64,000 nucleotides of DNA from an uncultured Thiotrichaceae bacterium. Lineage in GTDB: Bacteria; Pseudomonadota; Gammaproteobacteria; SZUA-229. The stretch lies in assembly GCA_964441285.1 (NCBI GenBank), contig CAYTUK010000001.1:156939-220938 (forward strand). The letters run 5' to 3'. Position 1 is the first letter of the stretch. Each line of letters opens with the position of its first letter. Below are positions 1 through 11,625 of this stretch, piece after piece. Under the pieces are notes generated by a model. That model saw only the letters and a program-made list of their open reading frames with translations. It ran no database searches and was not told the DNA's origin. The position numbers and the translations under genes were made by a program.

Positions 1-12
1 AGTATCTTAATT

Positions 13-204
13 ATGACTGATCAAATATTAACCATAAAAGAGGTGGCTGATTACCTCAAAGTGAATGAGCGAACGGTTTATCGCATGGCGACTGCCAAGA
101 AAATACCCGCCTTTAAAGTCGGGGGATCTTGGCGAATAAAACAAACTGAATTAGAGCAATGGATACAGGAACAACATAATCAATCGGGTGAACAGGAAGA
201 TTAG
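13..204 (+). CDS. AlpA/excisionase-family helix-turn-helix DNA-binding protein
   Basis: 63-aa ORF; motif IKEVADYLKVNERTVYRMATAKKIPAFKVGGSWRI typical of MerR-superfamily excisionase/AlpA HTH; sits immediately upstream of the R-M operon. Confidence 0.6.
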   Translation: MTDQILTIKEVADYLKVNERTVYRMATAKKIPAFKVGGSWRIKQTELEQWIQEQHNQSGEQED

Positions 205-297
205 TTTACTGGAGCTATGCTATCTAATCCCACAATAAAGGCTTACAGAAATTTCTCTGCATAGCGATGAAGCACATATTTAAACAGGAATGACAGC

Positions 298-1857
298 ATG
301 ACAAGTACCCAACAGCGCAACGAACTACAACGCCAAATTTGGCAGATTGCGAATGATGTTCGTGGCGCAGTCGATGGCTGGGATTTTAAGCAATATGTAT
401 TAGGTACCTTGTTTTACCGCTTTATTAGCGAAAATTTTGCCGCCTACATTGAAGGCGGTGATGACAGCATCAACTATGCCGAGCTTGATAATGATGTGAT
501 CACCGATGACATTAAAGACGATGCCATTAAAACCAAAGGCTACTTCATATACCCCAAAGAGCTATTCGTTAACATAGCCGCAGGCGCTAACACCAACGAA
601 AGCTTAAATACCGATTTAGCCGCACTATTTACCGCTATTGAAAGTTCGGCTAATGGCTACCCGTCTGAGCCCGATATCAAAGGCCTGTTTGCCGATTTTG
701 ATACCACCAGTAACCGCCTGGGTAACACCGTTGTGGATAAAAATACGCGTTTGGCTGCGGTACTAAAAGGCGTGGCGGGACTTAGCTTTGGCAATTTCCA
801 GGGCCAGTTTCAAGACAATCAAATCGACCTGTTTGGCGATGCCTACGAATTTTTAATCTCAAACTACGCCGCCAATGCCGGTAAATCCGGCGGCGAGTTT
901 TTCACCCCGCAACACGTCTCCAAATTGATTGCCCAGCTCTCCATGCACAAGCAAACCAGTGTCAATAAAATTTTTGATCCGGCCTGCGGTTCCGGCTCCT
1001 TGCTGCTGCAAGCCAAAAAACACTTTGAAGCGCATATTATTGAAGACGGCTTTTATGGACAGGAGATCAATCACACCACCTACAACCTGGCGCGTATGAA
1101 CATGTTTTTGCACAACATCAACTACGACAAGTTCAATATTCAGCTGGGCAATACCTTAATTGATCCGCATTTTGGTGATGACAAACCCTTTGATGCCATC
1201 GTCTCCAACCCGCCGTACTCGGTGAAGTGGAAAGGCAGCGATGACCCCACCCTGATTAACGATGAACGCTTTGCCCCCGCCGGTGTGTTAGCGCCCAAAT
1301 CCAAAGCCGACTTTGCCTTTGTGCTGCATGCCTTAAGCTATCTTTCAGCCAAAGGCCGTGCCGCCATTGTCTGCTTTCCCGGTATTTTTTACCGCGGCGG
1401 TGCGGAAAAGAAAATCCGCCAATACCTGATCGATAACAATTTTGTCGAAACCGTTATCTCACTCGCGCCCAATCTGTTTTTCGGCACCACCATCGCCGTC
1501 AATATACTGGTGCTGTCCAAACACAAAACCGACACCAGCACCCAGTTTATTGATGCCAGCGGTGAGGGTTACTTCAAAAAAGCCACCAACACCAATATCC
1601 TTACCGATCAGCACATCGAACAAATCATGCAAGCCTTCGATAGCAAAGCTAATGTTGAATATTTTGCTGAATCGGTAGATAACGACAAGATAGCCGAGAA
1701 CGATTACAACCTATCGGTCAGCAGCTATGTTGAAGCCAAAGACACCCGCGAGGTGATTGATATTACCCAGCTCAATGCCGAGCTTAAAACCACGGTAGCG
1801 AAAATTGACAAGCTACGTATAGATATTGATGCCATTGTGGCGGAGATTGAGGCATGA
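298..1857 (+). CDS. hsdM: type I restriction-modification system M subunit (N6-adenine DNA methyltransferase)
   Basis: 519 aa; N-terminal HsdM region ([18 protein letters not shown]); SAM-binding [11 protein letters not shown]; catalytic NPPY (SNPPYSVKW); ATGA overlap with downstream hsdS. Confidence 0.95.
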
Positions 1858-3134
1858 GTGATGTGAGCTTTATGGAGAAGTTGCTGGATGGGGTTGAGGT
1901 TGAGGTAGAGTGGATGGCCTTGGGGGATGATCGCGTTGGTAAATTCACACGTGGCGGCGGGTTGCAGAAAAAGGACTTTGTTGAAGAGGGTGTTGGCTGC
2001 ATTCACTATGGACAAATTTATACCCACTACGGAACCTTTGCTTACACGACTAAGGCATTTGTCACAGAAGAATTTGCTAAGAAAGCTCGCAAAGCAAAGA
2101 GTGGCGATTTGGTGATCGCGACAACAAGCGAAACCGATGAAGATGTCTGCAAAGCAGTTGCTTGGTTAGGTGATGATGATATTGCCATTAGCAGTGATGC
2201 TTGTTTTTACTCGCATAAACTTAACCCGAAATACGTTTCTTATTTTTTCCAGACTGATCAATTCCAGAAACAAAAGAGACCGTATATTACAGGTGCAAAA
2301 GTTAGGCGAGTAAATGCAGATAGTTTAGCCAAAATAAAAATCCCCATCCCCTGCCCAAACAACCCAAAAAAATCACTCGAAATCCAAACAGAAATCGTCC
2401 GCATTCTGGACACCTTCACCGAGCTGACCACCGAGCTGACCACCGAGCTGACCACCGAGCTTAGCGCACGGAAAAAACAATACAATTACTATCGCGACCA
2501 GTTGTTAAGCTTTGAAGAAGGGGAAGTTGAGTGGAAGAGTTTAAGTGAGGTTGCGGAGTATTCTAAAACGCGCATTAACTTTGAAGAACTTGATGAAGCC
2601 AATTATGTAGGTGTTGAAAATCTTTTGCAAAATCGTTTAGGCAAAACAGAATCTAGTCGCGTCCCAGAAAAAGGTAATCTTACTCAGTATAGCGAACAAG
2701 ATATTTTAATTGGCAATATTCGCCCTTACTTAAAAAAGATATGGCACGCAGATCGAATTGGTGGAACAAATGGCGATGTACTAGTTATTCATACAACCGA
2801 CAATGCTGTAAATCCTCGATATTTGTATCAAGTTTTAGCAGATGACAGATTTTTTGAATACAACATGCAACATGCTAAGGGTGCTAAAATGCCCCGCGGA
2901 AATAAAGCCAAAATAATGGAATACCCAACCCCAATCCCATACCCTAACGATCCAGAAAAATCGCTTGCCGAACAAGCACGCATCGTCTCCATCTTAGACA
3001 AGTTCGATGCTTTAACCAATTCCATCAGCGAAGGCTTACCCCGCGAAATTGAACTGCGCCAAAAGCAATACGAGTATTACCGCGATCAGCTGTTGAGCTT
3101 TCCCAATTCCCCTCCTCTGGAGGGGTGCCCGTAG
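1854..3134 (+). CDS. hsdS: type I restriction-modification system specificity subunit
   Basis: 426 aa; two dissimilar target-recognition domains separated by a central conserved region ([13 protein letters not shown]...[16 protein letters not shown]) repeated at the C-terminus ([12 protein letters not shown]...[16 protein letters not shown]); the last ~10 aa ([10 protein letters not shown]) are encoded by the inverted repeat of the adjacent cassette. Confidence 0.9.
2417..2460 (+). repeat. 12-bp tandem repeat ACCGAGCTGACC x3 plus an 8-bp partial copy, encoding (TELT)n in the HsdS central conserved region
   Basis: Directly visible: accgagctgacc at 2417-2428, 2429-2440, 2441-2452, then accgagct; translated [15 protein letters not shown]. 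Confidence 0.9.
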
Positions 3135-3147
3135 GGCGGGGTGGTTC
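3105..3147. repeat. left ~43-bp inverted repeat flanking the DUF559 gene
   Basis: AATTCCCCTCCTCTGGAGGGGTGCCCGTAGGGCGGGGTGGTTC; its reverse complement matches 3504-3550 at ~40 of 44 positions. Confidence 0.75.
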
Positions 3148-3150
3148 TTT

Positions 3151-3582
3151 ATGAGAAAAACAAAAACCTACAAATCACTCCCTTACAATCCCAGATTAAA
3201 AGGCAACGCTAAAGCCCTACGCAAAGCTGGAATATTACACGAAGCCTTGCTTTGGCTTGAGTTAAAAAACAAAAAGCTGAACGGGCTCGATTTTGATCGT
3301 CAAAAAATTATCGGTCATTACATCGTAGATTTTTACTGTGCAGAAAAAGCCGTTGTGATTGAAGTAGACGGTAGTTCTCACAACAACAAGCAGCGCCTAG
3401 ATGCTGAGCGTGACCAGTATCTCGAAAGTTTGGGGCTTTCTGTGATTCGCCTTTTGGTAAAAGATGTATTGCAGAATATGGCGGGAGTTGTGGTGTTTTT
3501 AAAGAACCACCCCACCCTAACGGGCACCCTTCCAAAGGAGGGGAATAATTACCTGCATGCAAGGAAGGAACCTAATGCCTAA
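3151..3582 (+). CDS. DUF559 / Vsr-like endonuclease-domain protein
   Basis: 143 aa; pattern LR.AG...E..LW..L......G..F.RQ...G.YI.DFYC....VVIEVDGSSH......D..RD..L...G..V.R typical of the DUF559 (very-short-patch-repair-like, restriction endonuclease fold) family. Confidence 0.75.
   Translation: MRKTKTYKSLPYNPRLKGNAKALRKAGILHEALLWLELKNKKLNGLDFDRQKIIGHYIVDFYCAEKAVVIEVDGSSHNNKQRLDAERDQYLESLGLSVIRLLVKDVLQNMAGVVVFLKNHPTLTGTLPKEGNNYLHARKEPNA
3504..3550. repeat. right inverted-repeat partner of 3105-3147
   Basis: GAACCACCCCACCCTAACGGGCACCCTTCCAAAGGAGGGGAATAATT; lies inside the 3' end of the DUF559 ORF. Confidence 0.75.
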
Positions 3583-4603
3583 TTTAAGTCTGCAAGACCA
3601 AACCACCGAATTCCTGCTCTACACCGCACCCGATGGTGAGATAAAAGTTGAGGTGCTATTAAGCAACGAAACCATCTGGCTAACCCAGAAACGCATGGCA
3701 GCCTTATTTGGCGTGGGTGTGCCGGCCATCTCAAAGCATCTTGAAAATGTTTATGATTCCAATGAGTTACAGCGCGAGGCAACTGTTTCCATTTTGGAAA
3801 CAGTTCAGCAAGAGGGCAGCCGAGAGGTAAAACGAAAACTGGAATACTACAACCTGGATGCGGTGATTTCTGTCGGTTACCGGGTTAATTCGGCGCAGGC
3901 GACTCAATTTCGCATTTGGGCGACAGCTTTGATAAAAGAGTACATCATCAAGGGCTTTGCCATGGATGATGAGCGATTGAAAAATGGCCATTATTTTGGC
4001 AAGGACTATTTCCGCGAGCTGCTGGAGCGGGTGCGCTCTATCCGCGCCAGCGAGCGGCGTATTTATCAACAGATTACCGATATTTTTTCTGAGTGCAGCA
4101 TCGATTACGACCCGAAGTCTGAGGCCACCCGTTTGTTTTACGCCCATGTGCAGGATAAGTTTCATTTTGCGATTACAGGCCATACGGCGGCAGAAATTAT
4201 TTCCCTAAAGGCGGATGCCAGTAAACCCATGATGGGTATGAGCACTTATAAAAATGCACCGGAGGGTCGTGTGTTGAAGTCGGATTCAACCGTGGCGAAA
4301 AATTATTTAAGTGAAGCCGATATTAAAAAATTGGAACGTGCAGTTTCAGCCTTTTTTGACTATATCGAGGGTATTATCGAGCGGCGTAACGCGTTCACTA
4401 TGGAGAGCTTTGCCGAAAGCGTAAACAAATTTCTTGGCTTTAATGAGTACCAGATTCTGGAAGGCTATGGAAAAATCAGCCGAAAGCAAGCGGAACAAAA
4501 AGCCATTGAAGAATACGAAAAGTTCAACAAACAGCAACGCATCGAATCTGATTTTGACCGAGAAGTGAAAAAGCTGCTGCAAAAAAGAGACTTAAAAGAA
4601 TGA
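3575..4603 (+). CDS. RhuM-family protein (virulence protein RhuM family) of unknown function
   Basis: Signature [27 protein letters not shown] typical of the RhuM family. The ORF caller gives 3557, but ATG 3575 with AGGAAGGA RBS upstream is the more likely start. The stop overlaps the hsdR start (ATGA). Confidence 0.8.
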
Positions 4604-7600
4604 GCGAATATAAAACCATTGCCGAATCCAGTACATTTATCGTTTTAGATAAATACATCAAAGCGTGCCAGATCAGCGAAAGCTTCCAAAGCGAAGACGA
4701 CCTGGAGCGAGAATTTATTCAGGATTTACAGAATCAGGGCTATGAATATCTCCCCTGCCTAAACACGCCTGAAAAAATGCTGGCGAATGTACGCGAGCAG
4801 TTGCAAGCCCTGAATAAGGTGCAGTTTTTAGAGGGCGAATGGATGCGCTTTGTTGAGGAGTATTTAGACAAACCCAGCGATAACATTTTTGATAAAACCC
4901 GCAAAATTCATGATGACTATATTCATGACTTTGTGTTTGATGACGGCCATATTCAGAACATTTACCTGTTAGATAAAAACAATATTACGCGTAATAAATT
5001 GCAGGTGATCAAGCAGTTTGAGCAAACCGGCTCACACGCCAACCGTTACGATGTGACCGTGCTGGTTAATGGTCTGCCTCTAGTACAAATAGAACTGAAA
5101 AAACGCGGCGTGGCGATTCGTGAAGCCTTTAACCAGGTGCACCGTTACAGTAAGGAGAGTTTTAATAGCAAGCATTCCCTGTATAAATATTTACAACTGT
5201 TTGTGATTTCAAACGGCACCGATAGCCGTTATTTTGCCAATACCACGGCGCGCAATAAAAACAGTTTTGATTTCACCGTGAACTGGGCGAAAGCCGATAA
5301 TAGTCTGGTTAAAGATTTAAAAGACTTTACCGCGACTTTCTTTCAAAAAAACACCCTGTTAAATGTGCTGCTGCATTATTCGGTATTTGATGTGAGTGAT
5401 ACCTTGCTGGTGATGCGCCCTTATCAGATTGCTGCCACCGAGCGCATTTTGTGGAAGATAAACAGCTCGTATGAAGCGAAAAATTGGAGCAAATCCGATA
5501 GTGGTGGCTATATCTGGCATACCACGGGTTCGGGTAAAACCTTAACCAGTTTTAAAGCGGCACGTTTGGCTACCGAACTCGATTTTATTGATAAAGTGTT
5601 TTTTGTGGTCGATCGTAAGGATCTGGATTTCCAGACCATGAAAGAATATCAGCGTTTCTCGCCAGATAGTGTCAATGGCTCTGACAGCACCGCCGGGCTC
5701 AAGCGCAACCTGGACAAAGATGACAATAAAATTATTGTGACCACGATTCAAAAACTGAACCATTTAATGAAAAGTGAAAGCAACTTATCTGTTTACCACA
5801 AGCAGGTGGTGTTTATTTTTGATGAGGCGCACCGCAGTCAGTTTGGTGAAGCACAAAAAAACCTGAAGAAAAAATTCAAAAAGTTCTACCAATTTGGTTT
5901 TACCGGCACCCCTATTTTTCCGCAAAATGCCCTGGGCGCAGAAACGACTGCCGGTGTATTTGGGCGTGAATTACATTCTTATGTGATTACCGATGCCATT
6001 CGTGATGAAAAAGTATTGAAATTTAAGGTGGACTACAACGATGTGCGTCCACAGTTTAAGGCGATTGAAAGCGAGCAGGATGAGAAAAAACTAACGGCGG
6101 CGGAAAACAAACAAGCTTTATTGCATCCCGATCGTATTCGGGAAATTTCGCAGTATATCCTGAATAATTTCAAGCAAAAAACACATCGCCTGCAAGCCAA
6201 CGGCAAAGGCTTTAATGCCCTATTTGCCGTTAGCAGTGTGGATGCCGCCAAGTTGTATTATGAGTCACTTAAGCACTTGCAAGAGGGCAGTGACAAGCCG
6301 CTAAAAGTCGCCACTATTTTCTCGTTTGCTGCCAATGAAGAGCAAAATGCTGTCGGTGAAATTCTGGATGAAAGCTTTGACGTCTCGGCGATGAATAGCA
6401 GCGCCAAAGAATTTTTAAACGTGGCAATCACTGACTATAACGCATTGTTTAAAACTAATTTTGGTGTGGATAGCAATGGCTTTCAAAACTATTACCGAGA
6501 CCTTGCCAAGCAGGTAAAAAGCCAGGAAATCGACTTGCTGATTGTGGTTGGTATGTTTCTGACGGGCTTTGATGCCCCAACACTGAATACCTTGTTTGTG
6601 GATAAGACCTTGCGTTATCACGGTTTGATTCAGGCCTATTCACGCACTAACCGTATTTATGATGCCACCAAGACTTTTGGCAATATTGTTACCTTCCGTG
6701 ATTTGGAGCGGGCCACGGTCGATGCCATTACCCTGTTTGGTGACAGCAATACTAAAAACGTGATACTGGAAAAAAGTTATAAGGAATACATGGAAGGCTT
6801 TACCGATGTGGTTACCGGTGAAGCCAGGCGCGGTTATATGGAAGTGGTATCTGAATTGGAGCAGCGCTTCCCCAATCCAGAAGCGATTGAAAAAGAGTCG
6901 GATAAAAAAGCCTTCGCAAAACTATTTGGCGAGTATTTGCGTGTCGAGAATGTATTGCAAAACTACGATGAATTTGCCGGTCTGAAAGCCTTACAAAGCA
7001 TCGATATGGACGACACGGAGGCGGTTGAGGCATTTAAAACCAAACACTATTTAAACGATGAAGATCTGGAAACATTGCAAGCGATTAAGGTGCCTGCCGA
7101 ACGAAAAGTACAGGATTACCGCTCAAGCTATAACGATATTCGCGATTGGCTGCGTCGTGAGAAATCAGCCGACGAAAAAGACAGCTCAAGTATTGATTGG
7201 GATGACGTGGTTTTTGAGGTCGACCTACTCAAGTCGCAAGAGATCAATCTGGATTACATTCTGGAACTGATTTTTGAAAATAGTAAGAAGGTTAAAGATA
7301 AAGCGACACTGATTGACGATGTACGTCGGGTGATTCGTGCCAGCCTTGGCCATCGTGCGAAAGAGAGTCTGCTGGTAGATTTTATTAATCAAACCGACCT
7401 TGACCAGATTGATGATAAGGCCAGTATTATTGATGTTTTTTTCAGCTTTGCCCAAGCGGAACAACAGCGTGAGGCAGGTGAATTAATTCGTGCTGAAAAT
7501 CTCAATGAAGAAGCGGCTAAGCGTTACATTACGACATCGTTAAAACGTGAGTATGCCAGTGAGAACGGTACAGAGCTAAATGCGCTGCTGCCTAAAATGA

Positions 7601-7698
7601 GTCCGCTTAATCCGCAATACCTAACCAAGAAACAAAGCGTGTTCCAAAAAATTGCCGTTTTTGTTGAGAAGTTTAAAGGCGTGGGTGGGCGGGTTTAA
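4600..7698 (+). CDS. hsdR: type I restriction enzyme R subunit (endonuclease/helicase), family IC-like
   Basis: 1032 aa; N-terminal PD-(D/E)xK nuclease motif ([13 protein letters not shown]); SF2 helicase motifs ([24 protein letters not shown]); size and organisation as in EcoR124I HsdR. Confidence 0.95.
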
Positions 7699-7883: not shown

Positions 7884-8108
7884 TTAATCTTGGTGTTTTA
7901 CGTTGGACTCATCTGGAGGCAGCGCATCTGTAGTGTGCGCATTGTCCGTTTCACTGACCGATTCTCTTTCATTATCGTCCATTAAAATTTGATAAGCGGG
8001 TCCTTCAAGGTCCTCAAACTGGTCAGATTTTATTGCCCACATAAATAACCAGATAATAATTGCTAGAAGAATTAAAGCCACGGGAAGTAACAGGTAAATG
8101 ATATTCAT
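7884..8108 (-). CDS. ccoS: cbb3-type cytochrome oxidase assembly protein CcoS/FixS
   Basis: 74 aa; single TM then SDQFEDLEGPAYQIL motif characteristic of CcoS; immediately downstream of ccoI. Confidence 0.75.
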   Translation of the reverse strand: MNIIYLLLPVALILLAIIIWLFMWAIKSDQFEDLEGPAYQILMDDNERESVSETDNAHTTDALPPDESNVKHQD

Positions 8109-8124
8109 TAGTTAATGGCATCTG

Positions 8125-10629
8125 TTATGTTTGTTTTGGTCTGTTGTTTTTGTCGCTTTGCAGACGAGTTAGACGCAATGCGTTTAGCACCACAAATAAG
8201 GAGCTAAGTGACATTCCGCTGGCGGCTAGCCATGGTTCGACATAACCCATTGCGGCGGCAGGGATGGCTATCATGTTATAGAGAATAGCCCAAATAAAAT
8301 TTTGTTTGATGATGGTAAGACACTTCTGCGCAATACTATAACCGCTAAAAATATGTAGAATGTTGTTGTTAAGTAAAACCATGTCTGCGGTGGCGACAGC
8401 GAGCTGTGAGCCTTTGCCCATCGCAATTGACAGGTTAGCGGCGGCCAGTACCGGTGCGTCATTAATGCCATCGCCTGTCATGGCGACTATCTTGCCTTCA
8501 TCCTGTAGTCGGCGCAACTGATTAAGTTTGTCCTGTGGTCGCAAATTGGCCTGTACATGGGTAATAGCCAGTTTATTTGCAATGGCTGTGGTGGTGGTAA
8601 TGTCATCACCACTCATTAAATGTACCTGCTTGCCAGCTTTCTGTAAATTTTTGATAAGTGTCTTTGCTTCGACTCTGAGCTGATCGCCAAGTAAAAAAAT
8701 ACAGTGAAGTTCAGCTTTTATGGTTGCGTCTGTGGCCAGAAAGATACTTGTGTAAAGCTCTTCTGTGGGGAGAGTAAGCAGAGTTTCATCGCTGTTTTGG
8801 CAATGCTGCTGGATAAAAGCGGCATTGCCCAGAAACCAGTGTGTTGTATCGATATAACCATCAACCCCATAACCGGGTGTGTTGTGTAAGTCTTTAACGG
8901 CTAATGGTGCTTGCTTATTTGCGCTAACAATGCAGCGGGCAATAGGGTGTTCGGAGGCGGATTCCAGTGCGGCGGCAATCTGTAAGCAGGTTTTGTCTGA
9001 GTATTTATCTGATAAGACGTGGGTTTTTTTTAACTGCAATTCACCTTCGGTGAGGGTGCCGGTTTTATCAAATACAAAATCGGTGATTTTTGTGAGCATC
9101 TCCAGTGCATGGGTGTTTTTGGGTAACAGGCCGATGCGTGCCAGTTGTCCGTTGGCTGCGGTAATGGCTGCCGGTGTTGCCAGCGATAATGCACAGGGAC
9201 AGGTTACGACCAGGGTGGCAATCGTGATTGATACCCATTCAGCGGGGTTATGCAGGTACCAGTAAATTGCAACGATGGTAGCAAGGCCAAGAATAATAGC
9301 AACAAACCAGCTGGCAATATAGTTAGCGAGCTGGGCAATTTTTGGCCGGGTATTTTGCGCCTGTTCAAGCAGGTGTTGTATTGATGAGAGTACGGTATCG
9401 TCACCAAGTTTTTCTACCTGGATAACCAGTGGGCTTTCTGTGTTAGTGCTGCCACCAATGGCCATGTCACCAATAGTCTTGGTTATCGGCAGACTTTCCC
9501 CCGTGAGCAGGGATTCATTGATTCCGGAAGTGCCTCGAAGAATGCGACCATCGGTAGGAATGTTTTCGCCTGGGCGCACCAGTATGCGATCACCGATATT
9601 TAATTCTGAGACAGCGACGGACTCCTGTTGCTCTTTATGCGTGGTGTTTTTACCGGTGTTAACCAGTCGAGTGGCAATTGCCGGGCGTAAATTTAACAGT
9701 AACTCAGTGGCTTCAGCGGTACGTTTTCGTGCGCTTAGTTCAAAGTAGCGTGCCGTGAGTAGAAAAAAAGTAAACATCACCACAGAATCAAAATACACCT
9801 GACCATGATTGACATAGGTGTGGTAGCTGCTGGCAATAAAGGCGATGGCAATGCCTAGTGCAACGGGGACATCCATACCAACACGGCGATTGGTTAAGTC
9901 TCGCCAGGCGGCTTTAAAAAACACATCGGAAGAGAAAAGGATTACGGGTATAGTTAGCAATAGACTTATCCAGCGAAAACTGTGTTTAAAGCCGGCATTA
10001 ATGCCCCACCATTCGCCGAAATACATAGCAAAGGCAAGTATCATAATTTGCATACCGAGTACCGCAGAGAGCCCGATGCGCCGGAGTTGCCGTTTGCGCT
10101 CATTCTCGATTAATTTCTGCTGTTTGTCAGGGTCAAAAGGATGGGCGAGGTAGCCTATTTGACTAATAGACATCAGTATTTCACTGAGACTGATGCGTGC
10201 ATTGTCCCAGCGTACTCGGGCACGGTGATTGCTGTAGTTGATGCTTACCTCGAGCACGCCGCTGAGTGCGCGTAGGTGTTTTTCATTCAACCAGACGCAG
10301 GCAGCGCAAACAATCCCTTCCAGAATTAATGCCACTTCCCGAATATCAGCATCCTCACCGGCATGATTTTCAGCAGTGATAAAGTGTTTTTGTATCTGTG
10401 GGTTATCGTAGGCCTTAAGTTGTTGTAGAAATTCCGGCACTAGCTCTTCAGCTTTTTCGGGTGCTGCGGTACGATAGCGGTAGAAATCGTCCATCCCTCC
10501 GCTGATAATGGCGTTGGCAACGGCTTCACACCCGTGGCAGCACATAGTTCTGGTTTCGCCCTGGTAGTTGATGCTGATATGACAGTCTGGTGGTACCGGT
10601 AAACCGCAGTGAAAACAGTTGTCGTTCAA
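8125..10629 (-). CDS. ccoI: copper-translocating P1B-type ATPase CcoI/FixI
   Basis: 834 aa; N-terminal Cys-rich CFHCGLP...CCHGCEAV; CPC transmembrane metal site (TCPCALSLATP); DKTGTLT phosphorylation site; GDGINDAP. Confidence 0.9.
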   Translation of the reverse strand: MNDNCFHCGLPVPPDCHISINYQGETRTMCCHGCEAVANAIISGGMDDFYRYRTAAPEKAEELVPEFLQQLKAYDNPQIQKHFITAENHAGEDADIREVALILEGIVCAACVWLNEKHLRALSGVLEVSINYSNHRARVRWDNARISLSEILMSISQIGYLAHPFDPDKQQKLIENERKRQLRRIGLSAVLGMQIMILAFAMYFGEWWGINAGFKHSFRWISLLLTIPVILFSSDVFFKAAWRDLTNRRVGMDVPVALGIAIAFIASSYHTYVNHGQVYFDSVVMFTFFLLTARYFELSARKRTAEATELLLNLRPAIATRLVNTGKNTTHKEQQESVAVSELNIGDRILVRPGENIPTDGRILRGTSGINESLLTGESLPITKTIGDMAIGGSTNTESPLVIQVEKLGDDTVLSSIQHLLEQAQNTRPKIAQLANYIASWFVAIILGLATIVAIYWYLHNPAEWVSITIATLVVTCPCALSLATPAAITAANGQLARIGLLPKNTHALEMLTKITDFVFDKTGTLTEGELQLKKTHVLSDKYSDKTCLQIAAALESASEHPIARCIVSANKQAPLAVKDLHNTPGYGVDGYIDTTHWFLGNAAFIQQHCQNSDETLLTLPTEELYTSIFLATDATIKAELHCIFLLGDQLRVEAKTLIKNLQKAGKQVHLMSGDDITTTTAIANKLAITHVQANLRPQDKLNQLRRLQDEGKIVAMTGDGINDAPVLAAANLSIAMGKGSQLAVATADMVLLNNNILHIFSGYSIAQKCLTIIKQNFIWAILYNMIAIPAAAMGYVEPWLAASGMSLSSLFVVLNALRLTRLQSDKNNRPKQT

Positions 10630-10842
10630 AATTTAAACAATGCCTTAATCTGAGTAGTAAATATTTTTATGGATACTGGCCAGGGTAACCTGTTAAGGTC
10701 ATATTAATATGCTGACAGTTATTTTTCTTGTGTTCTATATTTTGTATTCTATATAACTTATATTCTATATAATAGTGTTTAAGAAAAAGATCACGCATAG
10801 TTTTAGTCGAGTGCTACTAGTATAAGCCCTAAATTATCATTT

Positions 10843-11625
10843 TTGAGTATAGAATACAGTGTATCTATTATGAGTCAGCTAACGCGTATTAATTTTGAAC
10901 AATTAAAAGTTTCCTGTGTGGACTGCAGTTTACGCGAGTTGTGTTTCCCACATGGAATGACCAATGCTGAGATGAAGCAGTTGGGCAAGATTGTGAGCCA
11001 GCGTAACCCATTGCGCAAAAATGAAGCGCTGTATCATGATGGTGATACCGCGCAGGCGATTTATGCGGTGCGTTCGGGCAGCATTAAAACAGCGGCAGAA
11101 AGCATCAATGGTGATGAGCAAATTGTTGGTTTTCATTTATCTGGAGAGATGGTGGGGCTGGATGGTTTTAGAGATGGCACCCACTCCTGTACTGCTATCG
11201 CACTGGAAACAACCAGTGTTTGCGTGATATCGATGGATAAACTGGAGCAGCTTTGCCATGTAATGCCCGGCCTGCAGAAGCAGATGCGCCGGGTTATGGG
11301 GAAGGAAATTAGTGCGGATCATGGCATGTTGCTGATGTTAGGTAAAATGTCTGCAGAAGAGCGGCTGGCCAGCTTTTTGCTGAGCTTTTCACGGCGCATG
11401 GAAGAACGTAACTGGAAAGCTGACGAGTTCGTGTTAAGTATGCCGCGTCAGGATGTTGCCAATTATCTTGGTCTTGCGGTTGAAACGGTGAGCCGTCTGT
11501 TTGCACATTATCAGGACGAGGGACTTATTGCGGTTGATCGGCGTCGCATCAGTGTTCTGGATATGGCGCGGCTAAGATTGCTGGTTGGCGAACACGAGCC
11601 AAAAACGGTCGCAGATGCAAAATAG
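10843..11625 (+). CDS. fnr: FNR/Anr-type Crp-family oxygen-sensing transcriptional regulator
   Basis: N-terminal Cys cluster CVDCSLRELC plus a downstream Cys as in the [4Fe-4S] FNR; cNMP-binding fold; C-terminal HTH (ETVSRLF); alternative start at 10870. Confidence 0.85.
   Translation: MSIEYSVSIMSQLTRINFEQLKVSCVDCSLRELCFPHGMTNAEMKQLGKIVSQRNPLRKNEALYHDGDTAQAIYAVRSGSIKTAAESINGDEQIVGFHLSGEMVGLDGFRDGTHSCTAIALETTSVCVISMDKLEQLCHVMPGLQKQMRRVMGKEISADHGMLLMLGKMSAEERLASFLLSFSRRMEERNWKADEFVLSMPRQDVANYLGLAVETVSRLFAHYQDEGLIAVDRRRISVLDMARLRLLVGEHEPKTVADAK

Follow-up and report, generated by a model that had tools for sequence, protein, structure and literature searches.

Why should a type I restriction-modification (R-M) operon hold two genes of other families between its specificity and restriction genes? 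The locus that raises this question opens the window, a stretch of 64,000 nucleotides from an uncultured Thiotrichaceae bacterium (assembly GCA_964441285.1, contig CAYTUK010000001.1, positions 156,939 to 220,938), in which six genes, HTH (helix-turn-helix)-hsdM-hsdS-DUF559-rhuM-hsdR, occupy positions 1-7698 of the plus strand. An earlier note on this DNA recognized the order hsdM-hsdS-DUF559-rhuM-hsdR, and Pfam and PADLOC confirm all five genes. Its view that two genes are nested inside an intact type I operon also stands, all three Hsd subunits being full length according to both resources; by its domain content, the operon belongs to the EcoR124/prr-like kind. The note further suggested that the DUF559 and rhuM genes form one two-gene module. 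We consider it probable, instead, that the operon carries two unrelated passengers, an older rhuM and a later, self-contained DUF559 cassette. Accessory defence genes embedded in type I operons are known already; what deserves note here is the cassette: DUF559 is a very large family without an assigned role, here found with the anatomy of a mobile unit.

The cassette, consisting of a left arm, a gene core and a right arm, spans about 441 bp (3106-3546, plus strand), is delimited by homology and is missing in orthologous operons. The DUF559 gene has on either side an imperfect inverted repeat of 46 nt, at 3106-3151 and 3500-3546 (both annotated on the plus strand), which reads, from the outside inwards, ATT-CCCCTCC-nnn-GGAGGGG-TG-GCCC-nnn-GGGC-GGGGTGGT, that is, as two hairpins. 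In the left arm these are CCCCTCC-TCT-GGAGGGG (hairpin 1) and GCCC-GTA-GGGC (hairpin 2), followed by GGGGTGGT, whereas the right arm lies within the 3' end of the DUF559 open reading frame (ORF), where it encodes ..KNHPTLTGTLPKEGN. For the 26-nt core of the repeat 0.00 chance occurrences are expected in the window, and the inverted-repeat alignment score is 72, with all 1540 controls below 50. The edges are placed to within a few bases: the left one falls at 3105-3107, and the right one possibly extends to ~3556, as AATAATTACC is common to the window and locus L001. The last nine codons of hsdS and its stop (NSPPLEGCP, stop) come from the left arm, and GGGGTGGT, found 5-8 nt upstream of the DUF559 ATG in the window and in relatives, is probably the ribosome-binding site of that gene. 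The DUF559 ORF (3151-3582, plus strand, 143 aa; Pfam DUF559 1e-30) has no stop inside the unit; it passes through the right arm and ends 8 nt into rhuM. Hairpin 2 together with TTCTTT is only weakly terminator-like.

For comparison of operons with and without the cassette we used the 80 closest RhuM loci, from metagenomes. In orthologous operons (identity of at least 82% for hsdM and 79% for hsdR), rhuM comes directly after hsdS in L081, L085, L095 and L146, and a gene of ~415 amino acids (aa) stands between hsdS and rhuM in about ten others, among them L082, L084, L088, L091, L092, L094, L096 and L097. The two of these genes that were tested (L082 and L092) encode PrrC (PADLOC, 455-497 bits); the hsdS-rhuM gap of these two loci thus has a PrrC homologue beside rhuM, two accessory defence genes sharing one gap. 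A frameshift divides the PrrC-like gene of L005 into two ORFs (6423-6968 and 6929-7600). In four Aeromonas plasmids the match has the form hsdS-rhuM-hsdR and leaves out the cassette region; one of them, the Aeromonas media plasmid pE31A (L168), has the order HTH-ATPase-hsdM-PDDEXK-hsdS-rhuM-hsdR; full inspection of its 167-bp hsdS-rhuM gap revealed no hairpin unit. The PDDEXK nuclease-domain gene of pE31A (3942-4982), placed between hsdM and hsdS and overlapping both, marks another cargo position, and Fic-type (PDC-S04, SoFic) and Bro-N (PDC-S13) candidate defence genes are found elsewhere in related operons.

Among the 80 RhuM loci, the DUF559-rhuM layout of the window recurs only in L093, and the hairpin units are absent from the other 79. 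The cassette sits after ..TTTCCCAA of hsdS and takes the place of the variable HsdS tail of empty operons (e.g. PEAEKAIANG), so that only the non-conserved tail after ..YYRDQLLSF is replaced. The window, L093, L008 and L003 have the insertion at the same point, and that of L001 is no more than a few bases away from the same hsdS codons. As the operons are homologous and the insertion point is common to them, one ancestral event suffices for these copies.

The junction between the two passengers depends on where rhuM begins. Its listed start is 3557, and its true start is ATG 3575 (rhuM, 3575-4603, plus strand, 342 aa). Operons without DUF559 read ..LLSFPK(tail), stop, GGAAGGA and ATG, and the window has AAGGAAGGA and then ATG 3575; RhuM is 342-344 aa long in nearly all listed homologues; and identical DNA has been given two public gene calls, of 342 aa and 357 aa. 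It is on this alignment of homologous operons, the homologue lengths and one of the public calls that the corrected start is based. The motif AAGGAAGGA (3562-3570, plus strand), conserved in operons without the cassette, is the likely ribosome-binding site of rhuM. With rhuM starting at 3575, the DUF559/rhuM overlap is 8 nt (ATGCCTAA), not 26. Read from the aligned operons, the tight junction arises incidentally, because the 3' end of the cassette is open and runs into host DNA.

Does the cassette behave as a discrete unit elsewhere? To address this, 80 genomic loci encoding DUF559 relatives were fetched. Eight loci with unrelated flanks (the window, Methylomonas, Ca. Endonucleobacter, Casimicrobiaceae, a betaproteobacterium, Alteromonas, Marinagarivorans and a gammaproteobacterium) are similar from (A)TTCCCCTCC to GGAGGGGAA(T), i.e. 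between the tips of the repeats. The best protein relatives are 75-94% identical and 132-228 aa long, and they come from very different taxa, Chlorobaculum and Serratia included. Their tails share ..HPxLTGTPPKEGN and then continue with 0-24 divergent residues, the unit providing no stop for the ORF. Flanking inverted repeats scoring at least 30 are present in 45 of 77 DUF559 loci; for positions drawn at random from these loci the figure is 5 of 1540.

The hairpin sequences vary between phyla and remain palindromic (CCCCTCC/GGAGGGG, CCCCTTC/GAAGGGG, CCCCTCT/AGAGGGG, TCCCCCTTT/AAAGGGGGA). When 26 units are aligned, pairing holds in 95.5% of cells and compensatory changes are seen in 5 of the 11 pairs; none of 500 shuffles reaches the observed covariation score, and slid controls are 38-63% paired. 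Even between copies whose proportion of synonymous differences (pS) is ~0.7, near saturation, arm stems are nearly unchanged and the differences lie mostly in loops. The arms are therefore selected as nucleotide sequence. A long variant of hairpin 2 (GGCAGGC-nnn-GCCTGAC) has an identical G.A mismatch, at alignment columns 23/39, in all 11 units possessing it, which is intriguing for a relative of a mismatch endonuclease.

Units also occur in several copies and without the gene. L002 has two tandem DUF559 units (5389-5834 and 5951-6396), identical at 450 of 455 positions, and a partial third arm at 6482-6502, and one Smithella metagenome-assembled genome (MAG) has three copies, ~80% identical, on three contigs. 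A gene-less unit of 119 bp (left arm, 33 nt, right arm) occupies positions 4803-4921 of L004; it lies 160 bp upstream of a DUF559 gene with a degenerate left arm. Solo units and doublets are found near the DUF559 gene (within 6 kb) in L001-L011. In the cyanobacterial MAGs L007 (5752-6450) and L009 (4599-5338), arm doublets stand on both sides of the DUF559 gene, with their outer tips opposed across 17-19 nt, as long palindromes resembling REPINs (hairpin-forming doublets of repetitive extragenic palindromic, or REP, sequences). In L003 one unit (~8640-8681) is inserted in frame in hsdR (8219-11425) and another forms the HsdS tail. The hsdR insert consists of the hairpin unit and extra sequence (..QFETTPPFGHPSKGGELSS..SRTHHANRYDV), and HsdR contributes 57 N-terminal residues to an additional ORF of this locus (5629-5937), in which the C-terminus of HsdS and an arm are joined to them. 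The layout of L003 thus points to rearrangement at or near the repeats.

The cassette is unmatched in E. coli genomes, plasmids yielded only distant DUF559 relatives (38 of 72,556 records), and 2.9 million viral contigs gave four arm matches; phages and plasmids are therefore not obvious vehicles of the cassette. The arms match no Rfam family, and no account of a repeat-bounded DUF559 element was found in the open-access literature searched. The only trace of the cassette there is the enrichment of DUF559 among genes bearing inverted repeats: in a screen of such repeats, 'DUF559 domain-containing protein' was enriched (odds ratio 14) among predicted inversion targets (PMC9881135).

As the earlier note held, the DUF559 protein is Vsr/restriction-endonuclease-like: it scores 106 bits against a PF04480 cut-off of 20.6 and matches PDB entry 3hrl at 3.5e-15. 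Residues D60, E71, D73 and H77 are invariant in 28 sequences (40-88% identical) that include 3hrl; further invariant residues are E31, W35, R50, Q51, Y57-I-V-D60-F, C63, G74 and D84, and the acidic and histidine positions of the family motif YIVDF.C ... E.DG..H are kept in the window protein. DUF559 has been grouped with Vsr and the homing endonuclease structure 3r3p (PMC3424549), and the Vsr-fold homing endonuclease I-Bth0305I provides a precedent (PMC3239194). By analogy with Vsr and I-Bth0305I, a catalytic role of D60/E71/D73/H77 may be proposed. The ratio of non-synonymous to synonymous substitution rates (dN/dS) is 0.03-0.13, which indicates strong purifying selection. Untranslated relics, which the earlier note had named as one outcome that would undo its proposal, are not what this ratio and the intact motif residues describe, and the predicted status of DUF559 is that of a working nuclease gene.

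The history that we favour would run as follows. The older passenger would be rhuM, residing in the hsdS-hsdR gap where relatives carry PrrC alongside it. The DUF559 unit with its double-hairpin repeats would have arrived later and landed in the last codons of hsdS, so that the left arm would now supply a replacement HsdS tail with its stop, GGGGTGGT would serve the nuclease gene in translation, and the nuclease ORF, reading through the right arm into host DNA, would find its stop only inside rhuM. Expression of DUF559 probably depends on read-through from hsdMS. The arms of the unit itself, as hairpins or cruciforms, or gene-less arm pairs may be the substrate of the Vsr-like nuclease, the unit being copied by recombinational repair, by analogy with a free-standing homing endonuclease and with REP-associated tyrosine transposases (RAYTs) and their REP repeats.

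Each of the known systems resembles the cassette in part. The EDxHD/Vsr-fold homing endonuclease I-Bth0305I has the same Vsr-like PD-(D/E)XK core (PMC3424549, PMC3239194), and its gene, too, appears self-propagating. Unlike homing endonucleases, the DUF559 unit has no intron or intein and encodes a single domain of ~135 aa; rather than homing to one allele, it is hairpin-bounded, sits between genes and occurs at many unrelated sites (158 neighbour families). RAYTs with REP/REPIN sequences likewise combine a single small nuclease-type gene with flanking inverted structured palindromes and with solo units and doublets nearby. In contrast to RAYT, a Y1 HUH transposase, DUF559 is a PD-(D/E)XK Vsr-like protein (PF04480), and the 3' end of its gene lies inside one repeat. 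Miniature inverted-repeat transposable elements (MITEs) and their autonomous partners (Correia, Nezha) share with the cassette terminal inverted repeats, the 119-bp gene-less derivative seen in L004 and the in-frame insertion into a coding sequence seen in hsdR of L003, but the cassette has no recognizable transposase and no clear target-site duplication. Finally, the very-short-patch repair endonuclease Vsr has the same fold and catalytic residues as DUF559; unlike for Vsr, however, there is no adjacent cytosine-5 methyltransferase, only the N6-type HsdM being nearby, and the matching family is PF04480, not PF03852.

As a tentative generalization, to which we would give somewhat less than even weight, DUF559 genes of this kind would be autonomous representatives of a so far undescribed class of small mobile cassettes found across phyla, each made of a Vsr-like nuclease gene and double-hairpin repeats, promoterless and with an open 3' end, spawning gene-less MITE/REP-like derivatives, propagating through the action of the nuclease on its own arms and preferring a site just downstream of hsdS. 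If so, a large family of 'unknown function' would gain a role and a new type of nuclease would join those mobilizing structured repeats. Should the nuclease act on the arms, the system would parallel RAYT/REP while being built on a PD-(D/E)XK enzyme. This would also explain the appearance of DUF559 in screens of inverted-repeat genes, the ragged C-termini of annotated DUF559 proteins and the 'PPLEGG'-type peptides that end host proteins such as HsdS.

Several observations weigh against the favoured history. We infer mobility from comparative anatomy only, and a transposase, an unambiguous target-site duplication and a clean filled/empty pair are all missing: the ends of the cassette are AATT/AATA, where a duplication is indistinguishable from the palindrome, and filled and empty hsdS tails differ by ~20-30 bp, so that there is no clean cut-and-paste. 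The 64-kb window has only the two arms, with no dispersed copies. DUF559 and rhuM are adjacent in four operons (the window, L001, L008 and L093), and their 8-nt overlap could couple them translationally. The AlphaFold2 model of RhuM, built from 30 homologues, has a pLDDT (predicted local distance difference test) of 35 and is not usable. HsdS is the commonest neighbour family of DUF559 genes (9 of 142), and DUF559 stands beside hsdS or hsdR far above the level of random insertion, including in KSB1, Bacteroidota and a viral contig. A functional tie of DUF559 to type I R-M could account for this placement, and we regard such a tie as unlikely.

The neighbourhoods of DUF559 genes bear on that tie. 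Immediate neighbours of the 80 genes belong to 158 Pfam families, mostly housekeeping, and hsd genes occur within 6 kb in 14 of the 80 loci; the earlier note's remark that the family recurs in R-M loci is correct to this extent. In L015 (KSB1) the order is hsdS-DUF559-hsdR, and in L019 (Bacteroidota) DUF559 follows hsdS. In an IMG/VR contig classed as viral (L167, 107-1125), 5 bp separate an hsdR homologue from a DUF559 gene that precedes it, is 67% identical and has a matching right arm. In 53 of 70 loci the gene upstream of DUF559 points in the same direction, a bias (p = 2e-5) suggestive of reliance on read-through transcription. The DUF559-hsdS link itself is real; it may reflect a target preference, the tolerance of this gap for cargo, hitch-hiking on transferred R-M loci, or function.

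The strongest alternative to an unrelated, self-contained passenger takes the last of these options and makes DUF559 an accessory nuclease of type I R-M, for instance in nicking or repair with HsdR, its repeats being regulatory hairpins and any mobility secondary. It would fit the frequency of HsdS among the neighbours, the placements in L015, L019 and L167 (in the last, before hsdR), the co-orientation with the upstream gene, the strong purifying selection and the listing of COG2852 among R-M-associated families (PMC7251935). However, hsd genes are lacking within 6 kb in 66 of the 80 loci, where the neighbours are housekeeping genes, sequences 75-89% identical are found in distant taxa, gene-less and tandem copies exist, and orthologous operons are intact without DUF559. 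We consider this alternative improbable, though clearly ahead of those that follow.

The proposal of the earlier note, one two-gene defence or abortive-infection module of DUF559 and RhuM inside the R-M operon, fares worse and appears very unlikely. Adjacency on one strand with an 8-nt overlap speaks for it, as does the repetition of the layout in L001, L008 and L093; yet these layouts share their insertion point within a few bases and lie in homologous operons, as a single event would produce. The co-occurrence that the note had asked about is low, 2 of 80 RhuM loci having DUF559 and 5 of 80 DUF559 loci having RhuM. Moreover, operons without DUF559 exist, among them one with a closer relative of RhuM (L081, 88% identity), DUF559 belongs to its own separately bounded unit, and a PDC-S05 representative, of the family that RhuM matches, was reported active alone.

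Highly improbable is a third alternative, in which the inverted repeats are programmed inversion sites and DUF559 is under a phase switch. The odds ratio of 14 among predicted inversion targets (PMC9881135) speaks for it; however, that screen takes any coding sequence overlapped by an inverted repeat, and the anatomy of the cassette explains the enrichment. In addition, positions 1-10.6 kb of the window contain no recombinase gene, the transposed unit begins and ends where the repeats do, and all seven copies in homologous operons (the window, L001, L003, L005, L008, L093 and L167) are oriented with the hsd genes. Scarcely credible, lastly, is a decaying relic flanked by chance by ordinary REP-like palindromes: a single copy in the window and arms resembling REP-type hairpins would fit, but dN/dS is low, the motif residues are intact, and gene and arms stay together in different phyla.

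The favoured history, with two unrelated passengers, leaves rhuM with a role of its own. RhuM scores 351 bits against a PF13310 cut-off of 33.7, and its PADLOC match to PDC-S05, a single-gene system, is full length (4e-151 over residues 14-343). By this match, rhuM is a predicted single-gene accessory defence. One PDC-S05 representative, from a cold-seep genome, is reported to have reduced plating of T7 and T5 ~1000-fold and of T4 ~10-fold when expressed alone in E. coli (preprint, bioRxiv 10.1101/2024.09.26.614923). The statement that neither inserted gene has a demonstrated function is thus outdated for RhuM, since phage protection has been reported for this representative. As the earlier note remarked, this family too recurs in R-M loci: at least 42 of the 80 RhuM loci have hsd genes within 5 kb, in the arrangements hsdS-rhuM-hsdR, hsdM-rhuM-hsdS or with rhuM after hsdM, and enrichment of RhuM beside hsdS has been reported (PMC9881135).

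The closest parallel for such a passenger is the E. coli prr locus (EcoprrI, hsdM-hsdS-prrC-hsdR, type IC, with an embedded anticodon nuclease), which belongs to the same operon family (EcoR124_C). It has an accessory gene in the same hsdS-hsdR slot, and the tested orthologous operons hold PrrC there beside rhuM; unlike the prr locus, the window lacks prrC and its slot is filled by rhuM and the DUF559 cassette. The logic of PrrC masking and activation is known for the prr locus. By analogy, RhuM may be a second line behind restriction, a PrrC-like back-up.

The RhuM sequence offers few further clues. Its N-terminus gives weak Bro-N and HTH hints in Pfam, the former suggesting possible DNA binding, and its C-terminus is a conserved helical domain. 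Neither sequence nor profile comparison with solved structures gave a meaningful match. The accepted homologues are all at least 85% identical, a profile search returning the same close set, and for this reason neither a usable model nor a fold search was obtained. Some records name RhuM as Fic/DOC. This identity was rejected: 15 diverse RhuM proteins have no PF02661 match up to E 10, and the conserved stretch HFAITGxTAAE lacks the GNGR residues of the Fic motif HxFx(D/E)GNGRxxR.

The R-M genes proper are conventional. hsdM (298-1857, plus strand), the methyltransferase subunit, has N6-adenine methyltransferase (N6_Mtase, PF02384, 2e-118) and HsdM_N (PF12161, 3e-16) domains and matches PADLOC MTase_I at 4e-114. 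hsdS (1854-3134, plus strand), the specificity subunit, has Methylase_S (PF01420) in two stretches and matches PADLOC Specificity_I over residues 1-418; it has the two target-recognition domains and the conserved central and C-terminal helices of a type I subunit. hsdR (4600-7698, plus strand), the restriction/translocase subunit, is EcoR124-like (type IC group), with a nuclease N-terminus, an SF2 motor and an EcoR124-type C-terminal domain; its Pfam domains are HSDR_N (PF04313), SWI2_SNF2 (PF18766), T1R_D3-like (PF22679) and EcoR124_C (PF12008, 4e-71), with a PADLOC REase_I match of 1498 bits over residues 28-1028. The ATGA overlaps described in the earlier note are present, between hsdM and hsdS at 1854-1857 and between rhuM and hsdR at 4600-4603. 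A scan for sigma-70-like promoters and terminators found no excess, and co-transcription of the inserted genes with hsdR is on that ground plausible.

The operon is preceded by an HTH gene (13-204, plus strand; HTH_17, Pfam 1.7e-20) that scores 82.6 bits against a cut-off of 80 for NCBIfam antiphage_MADS1 (MAD1). hsdM is preceded by an HTH gene in L093, L105 and plasmid pE31A as well, and the product is probably a regulator of the hsd operon. A MADS identity of the locus was rejected, as HsdM and HsdS match type I subunits far better than mad2/mad5 in PADLOC; no further mad genes follow the MAD1-type gene at the locus.

Within hsdS, the central conserved region has a perfect tandem repeat of 12 bp x 3.8 (CACCGAGCTGAC, encoding TELT; 2417-2461, plus strand), of which orthologues have fewer or variant copies (TAEL, IAEL). 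In EcoR124I/II, the copy number of the hsdS central repeat sets the length of the recognition-site spacer. By analogy, the repeat at 2417-2461 may be a hotspot of specificity switching. Downstream of the operon, on the minus strand (7884-10629), lie a FixS/CcoS-type cbb3 oxidase maturation gene and a CcoI/FixI-type heavy-metal P-type ATPase gene. With housekeeping genes beginning at 7884, the downstream edge of the R-M insert therefore falls between 7698 and 7884.

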